A stretch of 64,000 nt of DNA from a phage, in the sequence record PQ724392.1; one strand, given 5' to 3'. Both the position numbers and the translations under genes were made by a program. Each line of letters starts with the position of its first letter. The first letter of the stretch is position 1. This document shows positions 4,949 to 40,336 of the stretch, in pieces. The notes beneath the pieces are model-generated. The model worked only from the letters and a program-made list of their open reading frames with translations. It was not told the origin of the DNA and did no database searches.

Positions 4949-5431
4949 TTAGTAACCACCGATAGGGCCGTAACCATACATACGAGCTCGGACTTTAGTA
5001 TCGTGCATAGCTTCTTCTGTTAAAGTAAAGCGCAGACCAATATCAAAGTGTTTCCAAATCTGACGTTCGACTTCAGCAAGGTCGTCGGTAGTGGAAATCA
5101 GATATGTGCGACCTTGAAGACGTTCAGTGGCCATTTTATCTCTATCTTTATAGAAAATGGTATCTTCGCCATAAAGGTCTGGGTGACGATAGCCTTTGAT
5201 GTGCAGAGCTTCGGAAACAGTAAACGGACACCCTTCGGCAACATTAACGTTTTTTCTATGAAATACCTTCAGCATAACGTTTTCTGGCATCGTCAAGTTC
5301 ATTAATTTTGTTTCCAATGCAGTGACCGAATCCATGCCATTGTAAACCATGATAAGACATGCGGTAGCATCGTAAGGTCGTGTTTGACCTGCCGAATCAC
5401 GGACATAGAATTCTAATTCGTATACTTTCAT
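4949..5431 (-). CDS. hypothetical protein
   Basis: 160-aa ORF co-oriented with neighbours; no motif recognised. Confidence 0.4.
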
Positions 5432-5573
5432 AATGTTTTCCTCTTACCGACTAATGGACCATCAGGAACTTTATTTTCCTTGATGTACTTTTCGTTTTCT
5501 TCCATCATTTTACTGCCAATTTTCAAAAGCAAATCCAGTGCTTCTTTTGCTCGGCGTTCAGCATCTTCTTGTG

Positions 5574-5768
5574 TCATGATTTATCTCCGTAGATATCACG
5601 CATCAGTTTAAGCGCTGCTCGTTCAGTCTTCTTTTCCTGCATGGCTTTAAGCCCGTTAACGGCCCATTCTTCGGCTTCACGTTGCATTTCTTCCTCGGCC
5701 CTGGCTACCCAGGAATCATCAATCCCTGGAGTAACCAACCAATCTTTAAGCCAACTTGTAATTCTCAT
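5574..5768 (-). CDS. hypothetical protein
   Basis: 64-aa ORF; N-terminus (SWLKDWL) resembles that of next ORF. Confidence 0.3.
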
Positions 5769-6122
5769 TTAATCACACGAGCTGGAAGACGAATCACAGC
5801 TTCCCGAATCATAGGAGGAATAAGACGAATCACCGGTCCACGAACTAACTGCGGCGGCGGTGACCACAATCGAAGTAGTATCGATACTGCTTCGCGCTTG
5901 GGCTTGGGCTTGGGCTCTTTGTTCTTGCAGTCGAGTTAAACGTTTTTGTAGGTCTTCTTCTGACATTGTAGAATATAGGTCTTTTGATTTCGATTTGACC
6001 ACTTCTTCCATCATGCCGTCACCCATGTAAACATATTCTCTTAGCTTAACATCCGGCAGGCTAACCGGAACCACACCTTCACCAGGTTTAGTCTTGAATA
6101 AATTCTTGAGCCAACTAATCAT
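5769..6122 (-). CDS. hypothetical protein with Ser-rich C-terminal tail
   Basis: 117-aa ORF ending DSSYSSYDSGSCDSSSSSCD. Confidence 0.35.
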   Translation of the reverse strand: MISWLKNLFKTKPGEGVVPVSLPDVKLREYVYMGDGMMEEVVKSKSKDLYSTMSEEDLQKRLTRLQEQRAQAQAQARSSIDTTSIVVTAAAVSSWTGDSSYSSYDSGSCDSSSSSCD

Positions 6123-6316
6123 AGGAAACCTCGTTTAAATTCAACTTGACCATCATCATAACGGATTTCAATATTGAATTCTAAAGAGTCATCGTCATGC
6201 ATCATGAATGAATGTACGATAACTTCATCAAACACACCCAGACCATACTTAAAATGGACATCATGAGCAATAATTTCATCTAAAGCTTTGTTTGGTTTAA
6301 TCCAACGGTTTAACAT
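6119..6316 (-). CDS. hypothetical protein
   Basis: 65-aa ORF, stop overlaps next start. Confidence 0.35.
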   Translation of the reverse strand: MLNRWIKPNKALDEIIAHDVHFKYGLGVFDEVIVHSFMMHDDDSLEFNIEIRYDDGQVEFKRGFL

Positions 6317-6392
6317 AGTATTCTCCTCTGTAATTGAAATAATTATACCGCTTCTATTAAAAGCAAAAAGGGAACCCGAAGGTTCCCTATAA

Positions 6393-6626
6393 TTAAACTA
6401 CTGGGGTAGGCGTAAACATCGCCGCGTTCTTAGTTCGCCAATCAGCTGCACTAGACGCTACGGTGACATAAGCGGCCTTTTCGGAAGGAAAAGTCTGATA
6501 GTGTGCATTCGCAATACGATGCTCATTTGAATAGATTTCAAACGGAACAGATACTTCAACACCTTTAACTTCTTTACCTTCACCAGCTGGATGCGTAAAG
6601 GTTTTGATATTAACGAAACCACCCAT
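6393..6626 (-). CDS. soc: small outer capsid protein Soc
   Basis: 77 aa; VNIKTF ... AHYQTFPSEKAAY matches remembered T4 Soc; TATAAATA late promoter upstream. Confidence 0.8.
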   Translation of the reverse strand: MGGFVNIKTFTHPAGEGKEVKGVEVSVPFEIYSNEHRIANAHYQTFPSEKAAYVTVASSAADWRTKNAAMFTPTPVV

Positions 6627-6657
6627 AATTAACTCCTTTGTTGTTTAATTACGGGTG

Positions 6658-6665
6658 TATTTATA
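6658..6665 (-). promoter_or_regulatory. late promoter -10 element TATAAATA
   Basis: Exact TATAAATA on gene-sense strand about 30 nt upstream of soc ATG. Confidence 0.5.
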
Positions 6666-6667
6666 AC

Positions 6668-7186
6668 TTAATAACCCCGGTCCTGACGAGCAAAGTTCTC
6701 AGCGTTTTTCAGGTAATACAATTTAAAGATTTCTTCTGCAGTCAGTCCAAGGCCATGGAACATGTTCAGAACAAAGTGCAGGATATCAATCATCTCAAAT
6801 TTAATTTCGAGCTGGTCTTCGGGAGACAACTCATCAATACGACGATTACGGAATTCAGCATGTTGGACTTTCCATGGTTTCCATACACTAGATGCAGCTT
6901 TCTCGCCATTAGACATACCACCGAGAGAAGTCAGAAGTTCACGGAATTCGTCGTCGACATAATCTTTCTGGTTACGAAGCCATGCAACAACATCACCTGC
7001 AGTAGTCAATTCATCTGGATGTGAGTTATATTCTGGTTTTTCAGTAGCCAGACGAACTTGCAATGATTTCTGCATATCAAGCATAATCTGCAGCGGGTCA
7101 GTACCTTTTGTAATCGCATTGTCATAAGCTTCTTCAGCTTTATCAACACCAGCAATCAGTTGGGAACACTCGTTAAAATGAGCCAT
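6668..7186 (-). CDS. 56: dCTP pyrophosphatase gp56 (MazG-like)
   Basis: Start set at ATG 7186 (MAHFNEC...); matches remembered T4 gp56 through the C-terminal KNAENFARQDRGY. Confidence 0.75.
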   Translation of the reverse strand: MAHFNECSQLIAGVDKAEEAYDNAITKGTDPLQIMLDMQKSLQVRLATEKPEYNSHPDELTTAGDVVAWLRNQKDYVDDEFRELLTSLGGMSNGEKAASSVWKPWKVQHAEFRNRRIDELSPEDQLEIKFEMIDILHFVLNMFHGLGLTAEEIFKLYYLKNAENFARQDRGY

Positions 7187-7251
7187 TATATTTTTCCTTA
7201 TCAATTCATGTTATTTTGTATGTTAATTATATCATATTGGGTTGAAGCATA

Positions 7252-33271: not shown

Positions 33272-33592
33272 TTATAGCGTAATCCATTCTCTGATAGTTT
33301 GGGTTACGACACGTTCTTGGAGCTTGACCAGTTCAACAGTCGGGACCATATGGTCCCAGTCGGTATGATAAGAGCCGGTACGAGTTTCGTTTACAGCCAC
33401 ATGTACATTATGTTTTTTGCTGAAATAAATTGCCTGGCGATATTGGTATTTGCCAGATTGTGTCCATTCGCCTAATTCAACCGGAACCAGGTAGTCCGAA
33501 AATTCAAACTCGTATGATTCAGTAAACGCATCATGGTCTTCAATGATTTCGCTTAAAACAGCATCAACATCTAATTCATTTTCAATAGTCAT
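33272..33592 (-). CDS. hypothetical protein
   Basis: 106-aa ORF co-oriented. Confidence 0.35.
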   Translation of the reverse strand: MTIENELDVDAVLSEIIEDHDAFTESYEFEFSDYLVPVELGEWTQSGKYQYRQAIYFSKKHNVHVAVNETRTGSYHTDWDHMVPTVELVKLQERVVTQTIREWITL

Positions 33593-34495: not shown

Positions 34496-34738
34496 TTATT
34501 CCTTAATTCCTAATACTTGTTTGAAGGTCTCAGTATAATCGGGGTATTGACCGGTTTGTTCTTTATGTTTGACCATAATACCATAAACTTCTGAACGCAT
34601 ATTATTATATGAACGAGTTAAAGCAGATTTCAATACTGAATAACTATCCGGAAGTTTACCGTGTTCTTTATAATAGGCCAGAGTTAATTCACGGACCGCC
34701 TTATCAGCAGTCTCAAGATATTCTTTACGCTTTGCCAT
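34496..34738 (-). CDS. hypothetical protein
   Basis: 80-aa ORF co-oriented. Confidence 0.4.
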
Positions 34739-35036
34739 TATCTACAATCTCATTATAAGCTGTATAGGCCGCTATTGCAATACACTCTTCTAACGGTAAA
34801 TTTGTATTTGGTTGGTTTATTAAAGCCGAATTAGCCCGGATTTTAAAAACAGTAATGGCATAATCAATTGAAGATTGAATATTACGATGGATGGAATCTA
34901 TACTAACTGTTGCACCGCAATCTTCAACGTATTGGAGACATATTCGGGTCGTTAATTCCTGAAGTTCTTTAAACAAGCCTTTCATCTCATCAGTCTCAAT
35001 GATATTTTGACTTTTAAATGGGTTTAAATTATTCAT
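34725..35036 (-). CDS. hypothetical protein
   Basis: Start moved to internal Met (MNNLNPF...) to resolve overlap. Confidence 0.35.
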
Positions 35037-35316
35037 TTTCTTCTCGCTCAAATTTGTGTTTGCAATGTCTGCATTTATAACGAAGATTACTAGTCTGCCA
35101 ATGGACCAACTGGACCTGCTCAGTTCCACATTCTGGACAGTTTGGAACACGCTTAGAGGCGCGTTCACGGCGACGAACCATAGCCATTACCATATCCCAG
35201 TCAGTAACCTGGTTATAATCATCAGTCCAGTTTAAAAGACCTTTATTAACCCCCGCTGCGGGGGTCCATTCTGGAAATGCAGTTTCTGCAATATCTTCAG
35301 CTAAACGTTGTTTCAT
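35029..35316 (-). CDS. zinc-ribbon protein
   Basis: 95 aa with CPEC ... CRHC pairs. Confidence 0.4.
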   Translation of the reverse strand: MKQRLAEDIAETAFPEWTPAAGVNKGLLNWTDDYNQVTDWDMVMAMVRRRERASKRVPNCPECGTEQVQLVHWQTSNLRYKCRHCKHKFEREENE

Positions 35317-36302
35317 TTCAGCAGCTCCAGAGCTTGTTCCAGTTTATCCAGACGATTAGTTGATTCTTCCCAAAGTCGCTTGGCTTTGGTATAGTCTTCA
35401 GTTGCCTTTTTATTAACAGCAAGAGCTTTATTATACGCCATTTCCAGAGCAACAATTTCAGGCGCTTTTTGTTCCACTGGCTCATTATTCAGATTATCAA
35501 TCAGGTCTTCAAGGGTGGTTTCTTGCGGAGCATTCATAATTTCCTCACTTTTCTTTTTATAAATTTCTGCATCAGTTGGTTGTTTTGCGCATTTAACTTC
35601 ACGCAATGTCACCACAATTTTCCAACCTTTCCAACCATGAGCACTGGTGATAGGGTCTACTTTAATTTTTTCAACAGTGCGCATATAATTAAGGGCACAT
35701 TGCAGCTGTGAAGTAAGCGTGCTCGCGGCATCAAGATACTTTTTGACATTTTCTGGAGTAGCCACTGGCGTAAAGAATCCATACTTAACTGTAATAATTA
35801 CCTGGTTTTCACCAGACTCTTTAACCTTTATCATGTGCTCAGCCAAATGGGAGATAGTGCGATAATCGCTACCCATCAATTTTGTCGCTGATTTGATGAT
35901 AGACATTTTGTTATCTCTGAATTCACGAGCCCAGCAATTTGCGAATTCAGAAACAGTATAGCCTTGTTTATCAAGGTAGTATTTTTCAACATCACCAAAC
36001 CAATGATATCCAATTGTACCTTTACCATGTCTGGATTCAACGCCAAACTTATTAAGAAGGTCTTTATTAACTAGGTATGCCAGGACTCGGGAACCTTTAA
36101 AAGTTTTCTTGATATCATCTTTACCGGCACGGCTCGCAATAGTCGCAATGTCTTTCTTGAAGCGCCCGGATGCAACAATCGTCGAGTCAATCTGATTTAA
36201 CCAGTAATTGATAATTAAAAGGATAGCCGATTCACCTATTAATGGTTTTACTTTTGCATCGATAGTGGTGTTAAAGGCCTGGATATATTCGTTACGTGTC
36301 AT
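35313..36302 (-). CDS. hypothetical protein with C-terminal coiled coil
   Basis: 329-aa ORF; C-terminal heptad-like tail (RLDKLEQALELLK). Confidence 0.45.
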   Translation of the reverse strand: MTRNEYIQAFNTTIDAKVKPLIGESAILLIINYWLNQIDSTIVASGRFKKDIATIASRAGKDDIKKTFKGSRVLAYLVNKDLLNKFGVESRHGKGTIGYHWFGDVEKYYLDKQGYTVSEFANCWAREFRDNKMSIIKSATKLMGSDYRTISHLAEHMIKVKESGENQVIITVKYGFFTPVATPENVKKYLDAASTLTSQLQCALNYMRTVEKIKVDPITSAHGWKGWKIVVTLREVKCAKQPTDAEIYKKKSEEIMNAPQETTLEDLIDNLNNEPVEQKAPEIVALEMAYNKALAVNKKATEDYTKAKRLWEESTNRLDKLEQALELLK

Positions 36303-36360
36303 AGTGTTCTCCTCATAAAGTAGGAATTCATTATACTCCCTCCATCCTTGGAAGTAAACA

Positions 36361-37272
36361 TTATTTTAATGCTAAAATCGCCGCCTGCAATTTATTGCGT
36401 TGTGTTTCCATATTCTTGATGCGATTCAGAACATCCTGAATACCCTTTTTCTCATCTTCAATCAGACCGTTTAAGCGGTTGACTGATTCCTGGATAGCAT
36501 CAGCATGATAGCTCTCAATAGGCTTCATTGGTGGGTTAAAGATTTCAAGAGAGCTGTTTGGCTGGATTTTCCATTGATACATATTTTTAACTTCCAGTGG
36601 TGAAATTTTAGCCTGGTCGTAAGATTTAAACTGACCTGTAACTGCTGGGTTATATGCTGCAGTAGGGGTTTCCATTTCTGGTTCCTTTTTCTCTTGATAA
36701 GGAGCATAAGACAAAAGATATTCTTTAGTTAATTTAATATCAATGACTATAGTTTTAAGGAATTTTTCTGTTTGATGGATATAATTTGTATCTTCTTCAA
36801 ACGTGTATGCTTCAACGGCATGACGCATATAAAACAGAGCAATACCCATAACCTCTTTAAAGGTATCACAAAGAGCAACATCACCCTTAGTAGTTGGCTT
36901 GAACTTAATCTGCACGCCATCGTTCTTGATATTAATAATCAAGTTATCGGAGTTAAAATTATAGTTCTTGATGTTAACCGGAGCCTTGCGAATACGAAGC
37001 CCCGCAGCCAGGATTTCCTTAATGCTCTTACGAACTGTGGCACCAAACAAAAACGCAGGGCGGCGGCAGTAATCATTCAGAGAGTTAATTCTTACAATAC
37101 GTTGCCCATACCCCTGGGTGGCAGAACCTGATTTGATTTTACCAAAGTTAACCAGAGAATTCATCGCGATAAGACGGGTTGCACGACCTTCACGCTGTTC
37201 AAATCGAGAATATTCTTTACGTGTTTTAATTTTCATATCATAATCCAAATAATTTTTCATAGAGTTTAGCAA
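36361..37272 (-). CDS. hypothetical protein with C-terminal coiled coil
   Basis: 303-aa ORF; C-terminal tail (IKNMETQRNKLQAAILALK). Confidence 0.45.
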   Translation of the reverse strand: MLNSMKNYLDYDMKIKTRKEYSRFEQREGRATRLIAMNSLVNFGKIKSGSATQGYGQRIVRINSLNDYCRRPAFLFGATVRKSIKEILAAGLRIRKAPVNIKNYNFNSDNLIINIKNDGVQIKFKPTTKGDVALCDTFKEVMGIALFYMRHAVEAYTFEEDTNYIHQTEKFLKTIVIDIKLTKEYLLSYAPYQEKKEPEMETPTAAYNPAVTGQFKSYDQAKISPLEVKNMYQWKIQPNSSLEIFNPPMKPIESYHADAIQESVNRLNGLIEDEKKGIQDVLNRIKNMETQRNKLQAAILALK

Positions 37273-37474
37273 AAGGCCAGGTCACACACATTATAACAGC
37301 GACTACCCAGAATATAGGCCAGCAAAATGTTGTGAACGCCGCATCATACTCGTCCCCACTTTCGTAGGGACTATCAAACTTGTGGAGCAACAGGGTAGTA
37401 ATAAAACCTATCACAAGATAACCAAAAATAATGCTGATAATCAAAATAGTCATATTAATCCTTAAGCAATTCAA
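37238..37474 (-). CDS. small membrane protein
   Basis: 78 aa, two hydrophobic helices. Confidence 0.4.
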   Translation of the reverse strand: MNCLRINMTILIISIIFGYLVIGFITTLLLHKFDSPYESGDEYDAAFTTFCWPIFWVVAVIMCVTWPFAKLYEKLFGL

Positions 37475-38300
37475 TAACGTTCATCAGTTTCTGACGTTCG
37501 GCTTTCGCCGCGTTATTCAGTCCCGACAGACGGAAAATTTCATCATCTTGCTGCTGGATGGTGATGTTAAGCTCTTCAATCTGTTTAGTGAAAAGCTCAA
37601 TTTGCTCTGAATATTTTTCATTGCTTCGCACTGGAACAGGTTCCATTTTAGGAGCTTGTTCTGAAGGGCTGACTTCAAATTGGTCTTTAATTTGGCATAA
37701 TTTAATACGCTGGACGCCTCCAGTTTTAACATCATAAAAGGTAAGAATACCGTGACATTCCAGTACAGACAATGCCAAACGAAGATGGAATTTCCAATTA
37801 TCATATTGACATCCACTAAAAGAAGAAATACTGTATTCACCTTCTTTTTGACCTTTAATAACATTAAATAGTTTATAATCTAAAGAATTATTGGTTTTAA
37901 AGGTCATTTGTTTATCTTGACCGCTTGCTAAACGAGCGCCTAATGCCAATAAACGGCGCTGGTTTTTCCAAAGGTCTTTAACCACTTCATCAAACGTCAT
38001 GGTGTTAATCGCACGACCATAAAGGTCATAACCTTTATTATAATTTTTAAGTAAAATTTTGGCATTAGCACGAGACAACATACCTGAACGATGAAGAGAT
38101 TTCATGACTCGGTCTTCTAATGTAAGAAGACCAGTGGTCTTTTCAAAGATTTTAGTGAATTCAGCGGAATTAGTACAAACATTGAACTTATTCCACATCA
38201 TATATAGAACATTTAAAACCACATCTTTGGTGCTTGGTATACGACCAAATTTAACAACTTTTTTAACTTCAGAACGAATTTCATTAATTGCTTGCGACAT
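37455..38300 (-). CDS. hypothetical protein with C-terminal coiled coil
   Basis: 281-aa ORF; C-terminal tail (KAERQKLMNVIELLKD). Confidence 0.45.
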   Translation of the reverse strand: MSQAINEIRSEVKKVVKFGRIPSTKDVVLNVLYMMWNKFNVCTNSAEFTKIFEKTTGLLTLEDRVMKSLHRSGMLSRANAKILLKNYNKGYDLYGRAINTMTFDEVVKDLWKNQRRLLALGARLASGQDKQMTFKTNNSLDYKLFNVIKGQKEGEYSISSFSGCQYDNWKFHLRLALSVLECHGILTFYDVKTGGVQRIKLCQIKDQFEVSPSEQAPKMEPVPVRSNEKYSEQIELFTKQIEELNITIQQQDDEIFRLSGLNNAAKAERQKLMNVIELLKD

Positions 38301-38363
38301 AATAATTTCCTCAATAGATTAATCAAAGGTCAGAACCATTATACCATCCTTGGTATAAAGCGT

Positions 38364-38888
38364 TTATGCGAGAACCGTCTTTAAACGCTCTTCAAACTTC
38401 TGAAGGAGTACCTGGCGCTCTGCTCTTTGTTTGGTATAGGTTTCAATACGCTCTGAAGTGAGATTGTATTGTTCATTAACTGATTCCCTCATGAATTCAG
38501 GAATCTCTTTACATGCTTTGATTTCATTGAACTTATCAAGCACCGCTTGTTGTTCAGCAATCAGACCATCATAATATTGGATATCTGATTTGATGTTTTG
38601 TACATCAGATTCAGTAGGCATATTTTTCTTTGCTCTTGTCGCCTGATACTCAGCATTAGTCTCTCTTGACCAGAACAAAGAGCGGTTTTTATTGGTGTTT
38701 TTATACACATCAACAATACCAACTGAATCAACAGTCACAATCCAGTTCCAGGCGTTTTTATAAGTTTGACCGCCTGATACTGTAATCTCACCCGCACAAG
38801 CAACATCATTAAAGAACTTGCTTTGTGCTTCTGATTTAAAATTACCATTATTGTAATTAATCAGATTAAAGATTGATTTCGCTTCCAT
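38364..38888 (-). CDS. hypothetical protein with C-terminal coiled coil
   Basis: 174-aa ORF; preceded by promoter cassette. Confidence 0.45.
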   Translation of the reverse strand: MEAKSIFNLINYNNGNFKSEAQSKFFNDVACAGEITVSGGQTYKNAWNWIVTVDSVGIVDVYKNTNKNRSLFWSRETNAEYQATRAKKNMPTESDVQNIKSDIQYYDGLIAEQQAVLDKFNEIKACKEIPEFMRESVNEQYNLTSERIETYTKQRAERQVLLQKFEERLKTVLA

Positions 38889-38954
38889 TTTATTCTCCAG
38901 TATTTGGTAACTCAGTATGGGAACATTATACGTCTATCCCCATACCATGTACAC
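38889..38954 (-). promoter_or_regulatory. early promoter cassette (-35 GTGTAC, -10 TATAAT, long conserved leader)
   Basis: GTGTAC-N18-TATAAT then GTTCCCATACTGAGTTACCAAATACTGGAGAATAAA before ATG. Confidence 0.5.
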
Positions 38955-39589: not shown

Positions 39590-40336
39590 ATGATTTTATC
39601 CGGAAGAACTGTTGATGAACTCAATGAAAAAGTCCAGGCTGCCTTGGCTAATAATTGGTATTTGTTTGGTTCTACTATGGTGTTGCCGAATACTCCTACG
39701 GATAGCAAAGAGCGTTTTTTCCAAACTATGTCCAGCTCGGAAACTCAGATACCGGGCCCGCCTGGTCCAAAAGGAGACCCGGGTGTACCAGGACCAAAAG
39801 GAGACCCAGGCGGGGATGGAAAGTCTTCTTATCAGATATGGCTTGACTTGGGAAATACAGGAACTGTTGATGATTTTTTAACTGATACAGCAGGAAAGAG
39901 GGAAAAATCCGAGGTGTTTTGGAGTGGTATAAACGTTCTATTAACTAATGGTGTGACTTCAAACATAATTAGTATTTTAAAGGGGATTCCGCCGACTGCA
40001 GGGACTCTATCTCCGTTTTTTAGAACCACTGATGATAAGTTGTGGCCATATAACCAAGACAGAAGCCTAATGTTTAAACTCAACCTTATTGGTAATTTTA
40101 CAGGAGCCTCGCAAGCTCGAAGTATAACATTAAATTTCGTTGGAACCAACGGAAACACTTATATACAGAATCGTCCGGAAAATGCTACAGATATTTTGTC
40201 TTTTACAACGTTCTTTAGCATTGATAAAGATGGGGCAATGGCAACCAATGGTACAGCTATAACTGTTATGCCAAATGGCGGCAACTTTACAATAACCTCT
40301 GCATTGTTAGTAGCCGAACAAACAGTGACTTCATAA
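39590..40336 (+). CDS. collagen-like repeat protein with C-terminal globular domain, plus-strand
   Basis: ATG 39590 preceded by AAGGAGAAAG; eight G-X-Y triplets (GPPGPKGDPGVPGPKGDPGGDGKS); followed by hairpin + T-tract; only sizeable gene antisense to its neighbours. Confidence 0.6.
   Translation: MILSGRTVDELNEKVQAALANNWYLFGSTMVLPNTPTDSKERFFQTMSSSETQIPGPPGPKGDPGVPGPKGDPGGDGKSSYQIWLDLGNTGTVDDFLTDTAGKREKSEVFWSGINVLLTNGVTSNIISILKGIPPTAGTLSPFFRTTDDKLWPYNQDRSLMFKLNLIGNFTGASQARSITLNFVGTNGNTYIQNRPENATDILSFTTFFSIDKDGAMATNGTAITVMPNGGNFTITSALLVAEQTVTS

Follow-up and report, generated by a model that had tools for sequence, protein, structure and literature searches.

T-even phages serve as the principal model of anti-defence biology. 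The T4 internal proteins IPI, IPII and IPIII combine a short conserved targeting peptide with variable bodies, and IPI* blocks GmrSD. The present analysis concerns four neighbouring open reading frames (ORFs) in a 64,000-nucleotide stretch of phage DNA (sequence record PQ724392.1; the whole stretch is called the window), which are homologues of the T4 genes nrdC.4, nrdC.5, nrdC.6 and nrdC.8. All T4 genes from nrdC.3 to nrdC.8 are non-essential on Escherichia coli K-12. On E. coli that carries dsr1, the gene for a SIR2 defence protein from strain ECOR17, a T4 deletion mutant regains infection when T4 nrdC.5 alone is expressed from a plasmid (Srikant et al. 2022, PMC9391042). In the HIDEN-SEQ preprint (10.1101/2025.11.20.689424), bas37_0203 of phage KarlGJung (Bas37) was reported as a Druantia type III inhibitor and T4 nrdC.1 as a Septu inhibitor. 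The gp49.2 protein was reported as an OLD inhibitor in T6 (PMC13096335). DSAD1, a phage inhibitor of DSR2 with structures deposited in the PDB, binds directly to this defence-associated sirtuin (PMC10973363, PMC10981675).

The window phage is a Gaprivervirus (Tevenvirinae), an SP18-like T-even phage. The 4.3 kb around the four genes match Escherichia phage pEC-M719-6WT.2 at 97.9% DNA identity. With Shigella phage SP18 (genus Gaprivervirus) they share about 90%, and the SP18 annotation names nrdC.4, nrdC.6 and nrdC.8 at the corresponding genes. All four ORFs listed in a preliminary description of this DNA were found on the minus strand (as are 123 of the 131 non-overlapping ORFs of the window) and are conserved genes with T4 counterparts. 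The predicted proteins are called P1 to P4 here. P1 (nrdC.4 homologue, 329 amino acids, 35313..36302, minus strand) is 48% identical to T4 NrdC.4 and matches the family phrog_1435 over its full length (residues 1-329, expect value E=1.6e-138). P2 (nrdC.5 homologue, 36361..37236, minus strand, with a probable ATG start; the listed TTG ORF extends to 37272) matches Pfam DUF7235 (PF23882; E=4.6e-119, 397.8 bits with a cut-off of 30, model positions 1-307 of 307) and also phrog_2351. P3 (nrdC.6 homologue, 281 amino acids, 37455..38300, minus strand) is 49% identical to T4 NrdC.6 and is a full-length match to phrog_2257 (E=2.3e-119), and PF26899 is recorded as a precomputed match on all of its homologues. 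P4 (nrdC.8 homologue, 174 amino acids, 38364..38888, minus strand) is 67% identical to T4 NrdC.8 and is likewise a full-length match to its family, phrog_2274 (E=6.6e-99).

The GenBank label "thioredoxin" for these genes was rejected: none of the four proteins contains a CxxC motif, and no thioredoxin Pfam match was found even at E<=1. The label is a carry-over from the locus name nrdC.x, and the present analysis corrects this widespread mis-annotation. The GenBank label "replication protein" is also without support.

The described proteins compare with those of the window as follows. P2 and T4 NrdC.5 are alike in Pfam and PHROG families over the full length, in genome position, in architecture and in the terminal motif. 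They differ in that the identity is only 27% (E=9e-26) and in that P2 falls into a distinct subgroup common to Gaprivervirus and Dhakavirus. P1 is the orthologue of NrdC.4. T4 NrdC.3, which falls into phrog_1435 together with NrdC.4 (PF26897, "Phage_T4_Y04OP", precomputed on all 62 P1 homologues), is a clear paralogue with the same tail motif, but the window phage lacks nrdC.3. The T4 internal proteins are similar to P1-P3 in carrying a short constant module on diversified bodies with host-range or anti-defence roles, a likeness drawn from description only. Their constant module is N-terminal, is cleaved and directs capsid packaging, whereas P1-P3 carry theirs as a C-terminal helix some 50 residues long behind a disordered linker, with no sign of packaging.

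P1, P2 and P3 very probably belong to one superfamily, and NrdC.8 is best read, from its sequence, as a separate and smaller anti-defence protein, an orthologue of the Bas37 Druantia III inhibitor. The four genes form a real and coherent feature; they were known before, though most lack characterisation. As leads, the family relation and the shared tail are useful and open to test, but they do not amount to a new kind of system.

Relationships between the protein bodies

The preliminary description held that the bodies of the four proteins look unrelated. At the level of BLASTP this stands, as no significant pairwise similarity was detected among P1-P4, but for P1-P3 it does not hold at the level of profiles. 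Alignments were built from three database searches and from the nrdC regions of eleven further phages. These included single-copy proteins of 324-354 amino acids from Kanagawavirus Entb_45, Moonvirus KM16 and Jiaodavirus JD18 (the single-copy relatives), which lie in the same genomic neighbourhood and also have coiled-coil tails. A HMMER search with an NrdC.4 profile (38 sequences) of 1.84 billion representative proteins detected only NrdC.4 clusters, fragments and NrdC.3 (E=1.7e-7, residues 2-216). The family is therefore very small and limited to T-even-like phages.

Profile-profile comparisons with hhalign reached further. NrdC.4 was linked to NrdC.3 with 98% probability (E values of 1.6e-13 and 2e-14) and to NrdC.5 with 88% probability (E=2.9e-6) over 229 collinear columns. 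The single-copy relatives were linked to NrdC.6 (87%, E=4.2e-6), NrdC.3 (73%), NrdC.4 (58%) and, through the tail only, NrdC.5 (58%). When the profiles were restricted to the bodies, the matches of NrdC.4 to NrdC.3 (98%), to NrdC.5 (84%, E=7.6e-6) and to the single-copy relatives (77%) remained, as did that of NrdC.6 to the single-copy relatives (63%). Tail-only profiles of NrdC.5 and the single-copy relatives matched at 94% (E=1.6e-7). The NrdC.6 link is the weakest within the superfamily.

PHROG, an independent library, gave cross-matches which link phrog_26858, phrog_2351, phrog_2257, phrog_23608 and phrog_1435. The single-copy protein of Entb_45 matches phrog_2257 over residues 148-336 and the tail of phrog_2351, the body of its JD18 counterpart matches phrog_26858 and phrog_1435, and the P2 tail also matches phrog_26858 (E=1.8e-7).

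AlphaFold2 models of P2 and P3 have a common order of elements: N-terminal helices, a strand-strand-helix-strand-strand region (residues 111-181 in P2, 145-202 in P3), a low-confidence linker (189-251 and 203-226, respectively) and a terminal helix. The P3 model is the more confident (predicted local distance difference test, pLDDT, 79). In a viral structure library it found full-length matches at probability 1.00, which are uncharacterised proteins of 304-335 amino acids from T4-like phages of Enterobacter, Pectobacterium, Citrobacter, Acinetobacter and Yersinia. A BFVD search with the low-confidence P2 model returned little besides orthologues, and searches of the PDB with the P2 sequence and with a P2 profile found nothing relevant. 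The predicted architecture of the superfamily begins with a helical N-domain, followed by a beta-beta-alpha-beta-beta domain; a disordered linker of 25-60 residues then leads to a terminal amphipathic helix. As judged from the sequences, its members appear to be NrdC.3, NrdC.4, NrdC.5, NrdC.6 and the single-copy relatives of other genera, and it appears restricted to Straboviridae. The number of paralogues is four in Tequatrovirus, three in Gaprivervirus and Dhakavirus, two to three in Mosigvirus and one in the other sampled genera. An IMG/VR search for loci with P2 returned only three near-identical ones.

NrdC.8 does not join this group. The proposal of a diversified family is borne out for P1-P3 by the hhalign links, the PHROG cross-matches and the two AlphaFold2 models, but fails for P4: comparisons of NrdC.8 with the family members by hhalign, using whole proteins, bodies or tails, gave no link. 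P4 is 69% identical over its full length to Bas37_0203 (175 amino acids). The bas37_0203 gene (528 bp) occupies the same locus, lying between the counterparts of nrdC.7 and nrdC.9 in the supplementary annotation of the preprint and in the GenBank record, as P4 lies between nrdC.6 and nrdC.9. The gene is not named nrdC.8 in the preprint, and the equation of the two was drawn here from coordinates and sequence; an unnamed published Druantia III inhibitor is now tied to the nrdC.8 family. The treatment of nrdC.8 as a nucleotide reductase, found in a paper on DRT1 that reports a transcript change only, is without sequence support.

The C-terminal tail

All four proteins were originally described as ending in a heptad-like helix of 25-40 residues. 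Coiled-coil propensity was scored with our own COILS-type re-implementation, the MTIDK matrix included, and the controls were therefore weighted above the absolute probabilities. Scores above P=0.5, reaching up to 1.0, cover residues 282-329 of P1, 258-303 of P2 and 224-281 of P3, and the helical tails are in fact 46-58 residues long. In P4 the probability over residues 142-174 is only 0.5-0.83. Some coiled-coil score was present in 11 of the 131 non-overlapping ORFs of the window, but it reached the C-terminus in P1-P4 only. Residue shuffles of the tails attained the observed score 37, 12 and 7 times per 1000 for P1, P2 and P3, and 112 times per 1000 for P4, whose heptad order is not significant against such shuffles. 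The heptad-like helix is thus upheld by scores and shuffles in P1-P3 (where a periodicity of at least four heptads is present in the predicted helix), while the P4 signal is weak.

The tail helix of P1 (residues 282-329, 35316..35459, minus strand) ends in ...NRLDKLEQALELLK. That of P2 (residues 252-303 in the numbering of the TTG ORF, 36364..36519, minus strand) ends in ...QRNKLQAAILALK and was modelled by AlphaFold2 as one 51-residue terminal helix (252-302, pLDDT 83-91). The P3 tail (residues 227-281, 37458..37622, minus strand), ending in ...ERQKLMNVIELLKD, was modelled as two helices (227-257 and 263-280) with a break at a conserved RLSGL, in which G260 and L261 are nearly invariant. P4 has a charged C-terminal segment (residues 142-174, 38367..38465, minus strand) with a weak heptad signal.

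The ends of P1, P2 and P3 share the consensus R.KL..A.ELLK and a predicted register, in which, counted from the end, the final Leu is at position d and the final Lys at e. Tails of twelve representatives from five subfamilies were aligned without gaps from the terminal L-K/N, an anchor picked by eye, which introduces a small bias. In this alignment the mean BLOSUM62 score between families was +16.9 for the last 14 residues and +12.4 for the last 28. Moving one partner out of place by whole heptads (7, 14, 21 or 28 residues) lowered it to between -4.6 and +2.7. The P1-P3 tails are therefore homologous and in register with each other, and the differing registers that would have spoken for unrelated helices were not seen. 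A loose regular expression of the motif matched 33 of the 1050 six-frame ORFs in the sequences examined, and all 33 are family members, though the test is partly circular. For the NrdC.8 end, the best of 30 offsets pairs its ...RLK with the ...LLK of the family, but the match is weak (+7 compared with +17) and is gone over 28 residues. The charged helical C-terminus of NrdC.8 appears to resemble the other tails only superficially.

The tail is more conserved than the body in every subfamily compared. Among the most diverged NrdC.4 members the tails are 73-79% identical and the bodies 26-27%. The respective values are 69% and 41% for intermediate NrdC.6 members, 53-55% and 21-25% for the most diverged NrdC.6 members, and 74% and 48% for NrdC.5. 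Conservation along the tail peaks at positions a and d but stays high at b, c and f (0.72-0.76). The P1 gene and a diverged NrdC.4 gene from a metagenome contig encode tails with 79% residue identity, and 32% of the codons for identical residues differ. Between the P1 gene and the Dhakavirus copy, synonymous differences amount to 34% in the tail and 41% in the body, with residue identities of 79% and 40%. Such synonymous divergence inside a conserved tail indicates purifying selection and not recent transfer.

Gene conversion or recent transfer was rejected as the source of tail conservation on the same grounds, and also because no DNA repeats or DNA similarity were found between the tails. 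Retention of the tail due to overlap with the promoter of the next gene was rejected as well: the promoter boxes lie past the stop codons, the end of the P1 tail overlaps the ATGA start of the next gene and carries no promoter, and the tails have no common DNA similarity.

Bodies and tails have been rearranged in several phages. Salmonella phage Manna has lost nrdC.5 and the body of nrdC.4 and encodes a 345-residue chimera (6203-7240), whose NrdC.6 body (residues 1-258) shows 93% identity to T4 NrdC.6 and whose NrdC.4 tail (residues 263-345) shows 96% identity to that of T4 NrdC.4. NrdC.6 of Shigella phage Sf25 (378 amino acids) contains an in-frame internal duplication of 83 residues (176-258), and in SP18 nrdC.5 is split into two ORFs (5328-6232 of the SP18 region). 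In the T4 reference (NC_000866), nrdC.6 (region 6067-6894) ends in ...EELIFLFNNMMMKFSDYLD, which is the +1 frame of the Bas37 tail ...NISIQQYDDEIFRLSGL..., and it therefore lacks the conserved tail. In the T4D annotation of the HIDEN-SEQ preprint nrdC.6 is 891 bp long (10.1101/2025.11.20.689424). Tail-only ORFs also occur. Logan contig SRR23924977_88013 carries, after a small membrane-protein gene, an 83-residue ORF (188-439) with only an NrdC.5-like linker and tail, ending in ...KLYIQKAKLIAAIESLK, and phrog_19693 (58 amino acids) is a similar tail-only family.

Possible functions of the family

The region is part of an anti-defence island. Homologues of T4 gp49.2 (33272-33592, minus strand, 75% identity) and T4 NrdC.1 (34496-34738, minus strand, 79% identity) lie 2-3 kb downstream of the P1-P4 genes. 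On balance, though by no large measure, we favour the reading that P1-P3 are anti-defence proteins of modular build, in which the bodies vary and bind the targets and the constant helix serves oligomerisation or docking, and that P4 is a separate anti-defence protein. The genes for P1-P3 would be expressed early and be dispensable on laboratory E. coli. The fast-diverging body (the N-domain together with the beta-beta-alpha-beta-beta domain) would serve as the specificity module, and each body would have a target of its own to bind and neutralise, either a host defence protein or the trigger of one. The constant helix could act in one of two ways: by coiled-coil oligomerisation, giving higher avidity for oligomeric defence proteins, or by docking all paralogues onto one common partner. 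An oligomerisation or partner-binding role of the tail, as already put forward in the preliminary description, is made plausible by its stronger conservation relative to the body, which extends to all faces of the helix. Direct binding of the kind described for DSAD1 is a plausible model for the action of NrdC.5 by analogy, although the two have no sequence similarity and DSAD1 targets DSR2, not Dsr1. How P1 and P3 act in anti-defence, what the window copies target and how the tail works are inferred here. If nrdC.3, nrdC.4 and nrdC.6 share paralogy with the anti-Dsr1 gene nrdC.5, each pairing a variable body with the constant tail, then inhibition of other defence systems is their likely role.

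Several points weigh against this reading. In the literature, of which the coverage was incomplete, no experimental function of NrdC.3, NrdC.4 or NrdC.6 was found, and no paper describes the paralogy of the NrdC proteins or their shared tail. Transfer of the anti-Dsr1 function to P2 is unsafe at so low an identity to T4 NrdC.5, and is further doubtful because in the proposed model the bodies change targets. The profile links of NrdC.6 and NrdC.5 are modest (58-88%), come from shallow alignments and are partly transitive; the direct comparison of NrdC.4 with NrdC.6 was not significant (E about 0.05). Confidence in the P2 model is low (pLDDT 59). The coiled-coil score is largely compositional, with heptad order modestly significant in P1-P3, and Ala, Ser, Tyr and Trp occupy a and d positions in the core of the P1 helix. 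A canonical coiled coil is therefore not assured.

The family could be real and yet not act in anti-defence. In that case its members would be early host-takeover or regulatory factors which engage a common host machine through the tail (transcription, the nucleoid and nucleotide metabolism are candidates), and the effect of NrdC.5 on Dsr1 would be indirect. The early-promoter-like sites, a conserved tail suggesting one constant partner and the lack of a published defence phenotype for NrdC.3, NrdC.4 and NrdC.6 would agree with this. We nevertheless consider it unlikely. All of the genes are non-essential on K-12, and nrdC.5 alone rescues infection against cloned dsr1 (PMC9391042). Moreover, the surrounding genes are anti-defence genes, and the family shows the typical marks of an arms race: a very narrow distribution, a copy number that varies from one to four per genus, and genes that are often truncated, fused or frameshifted.

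A more elaborate form of the modular anti-defence reading is a distinctly unlikely one in our estimate. Here the terminal helix would be a common docking module that joins the three or four "warhead" bodies of each phage on one hub, forming a combinatorial anti-defence platform with exchangeable parts. As the hub, either one partner from host or phage or a coiled-coil bundle mixed from the paralogues is conceivable. New specificities would arise by divergence of the body and recombination in the linker while the tail stays fixed, and the free-standing tail-only ORFs would be regulators or competitors of the hub.

It is very unlikely that the tails are convergent generic charged helices or coiled coils, with four unrelated bodies brought together by coincidence among small accessory genes. 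Position-specific conservation in a single register, a motif that is family-specific in 1050 ORFs, collinear body-only profile matches, PHROG cross-matches and the same domain order in two models all speak against convergence, as does the confinement of C-terminal coiled-coil scores to these ORFs of the window. What convergence does account for is the absence of significant BLASTP matches among the four and of DNA repeats between the tails, the mostly compositional coiled-coil score and the failure of the NrdC.4-profile HMMER search to detect NrdC.5 and NrdC.6. It is a fair description of NrdC.8 only. Equally improbable is a single hetero-oligomer of all four proteins, NrdC.8 included, assembled through the C-terminal helices and explaining the adjacency of the genes: the common register of the P1-P3 tails and the pairing of the NrdC.8 end with that of the family would suit it, but this pairing is weak, Mosigvirus ESCO47 and phage Manna retain NrdC.8 with differing subsets of paralogues, Kanagawavirus, Moonvirus and Jiaodavirus have one paralogue and no NrdC.8, and nrdC.5 on a plasmid suffices against Dsr1 without the others (PMC9391042).

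Neighbouring genes, promoters and repeats

The genes were described as four consecutive ones, but another ORF (37238..37474, minus strand) intervenes between nrdC.6 and nrdC.5. It encodes a predicted membrane protein of 78 amino acids with two transmembrane segments, which is not a family member. Its counterpart in phage EAWsc9 is annotated "TMhelix containing protein", and the gene is also found in Dhakavirus. The real start of the nrdC.5 homologue is probably the ATG at 37236 (Met13 of the TTG ORF, giving a gene at 36361-37236), because Met13 is the first invariant column of the alignment and lies one base past the stop of the upstream ORF. The position of this TGA stop, one base before the ATG, suggests translational coupling of the two genes.

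Two sigma-70-like promoters were identified on the minus strand. One (TTTACT-17-TATAAT, 36330..36358) lies just past the nrdC.5 stop and upstream of nrdC.4, and the other (TGTACA-17-TATAAT, 38925..38953) lies upstream of nrdC.8. A direct repeat of 21 nucleotides (36342-36362 and 38344-38364; AATGTTTACTTCCAAGGATGG and AACGCTTTATACCAAGGATGG on the minus strand) begins at the final bases of the nrdC.5 and nrdC.8 stop codons. The first copy holds a GTTTAC box typical of T4 early promoters, and the box recurs past the nrdC.8 stop.

Two further ORFs lie nearby. An ORF of about 103 amino acids (34725-35036, minus strand), flanked by the homologues of nrdC.2 and nrdC.1, matches none of the T4 proteins with which it was compared. 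At the position of T4 nrdC.10, a 248-residue ORF (39590-40336) is on the plus strand, opposite to nearly all of its neighbours. Its sequence includes a collagen-like repeat (GPPGPKGDPGVPGPKGDPGG), and the EAWsc9 annotation reads "tail-NK domain-containing protein".

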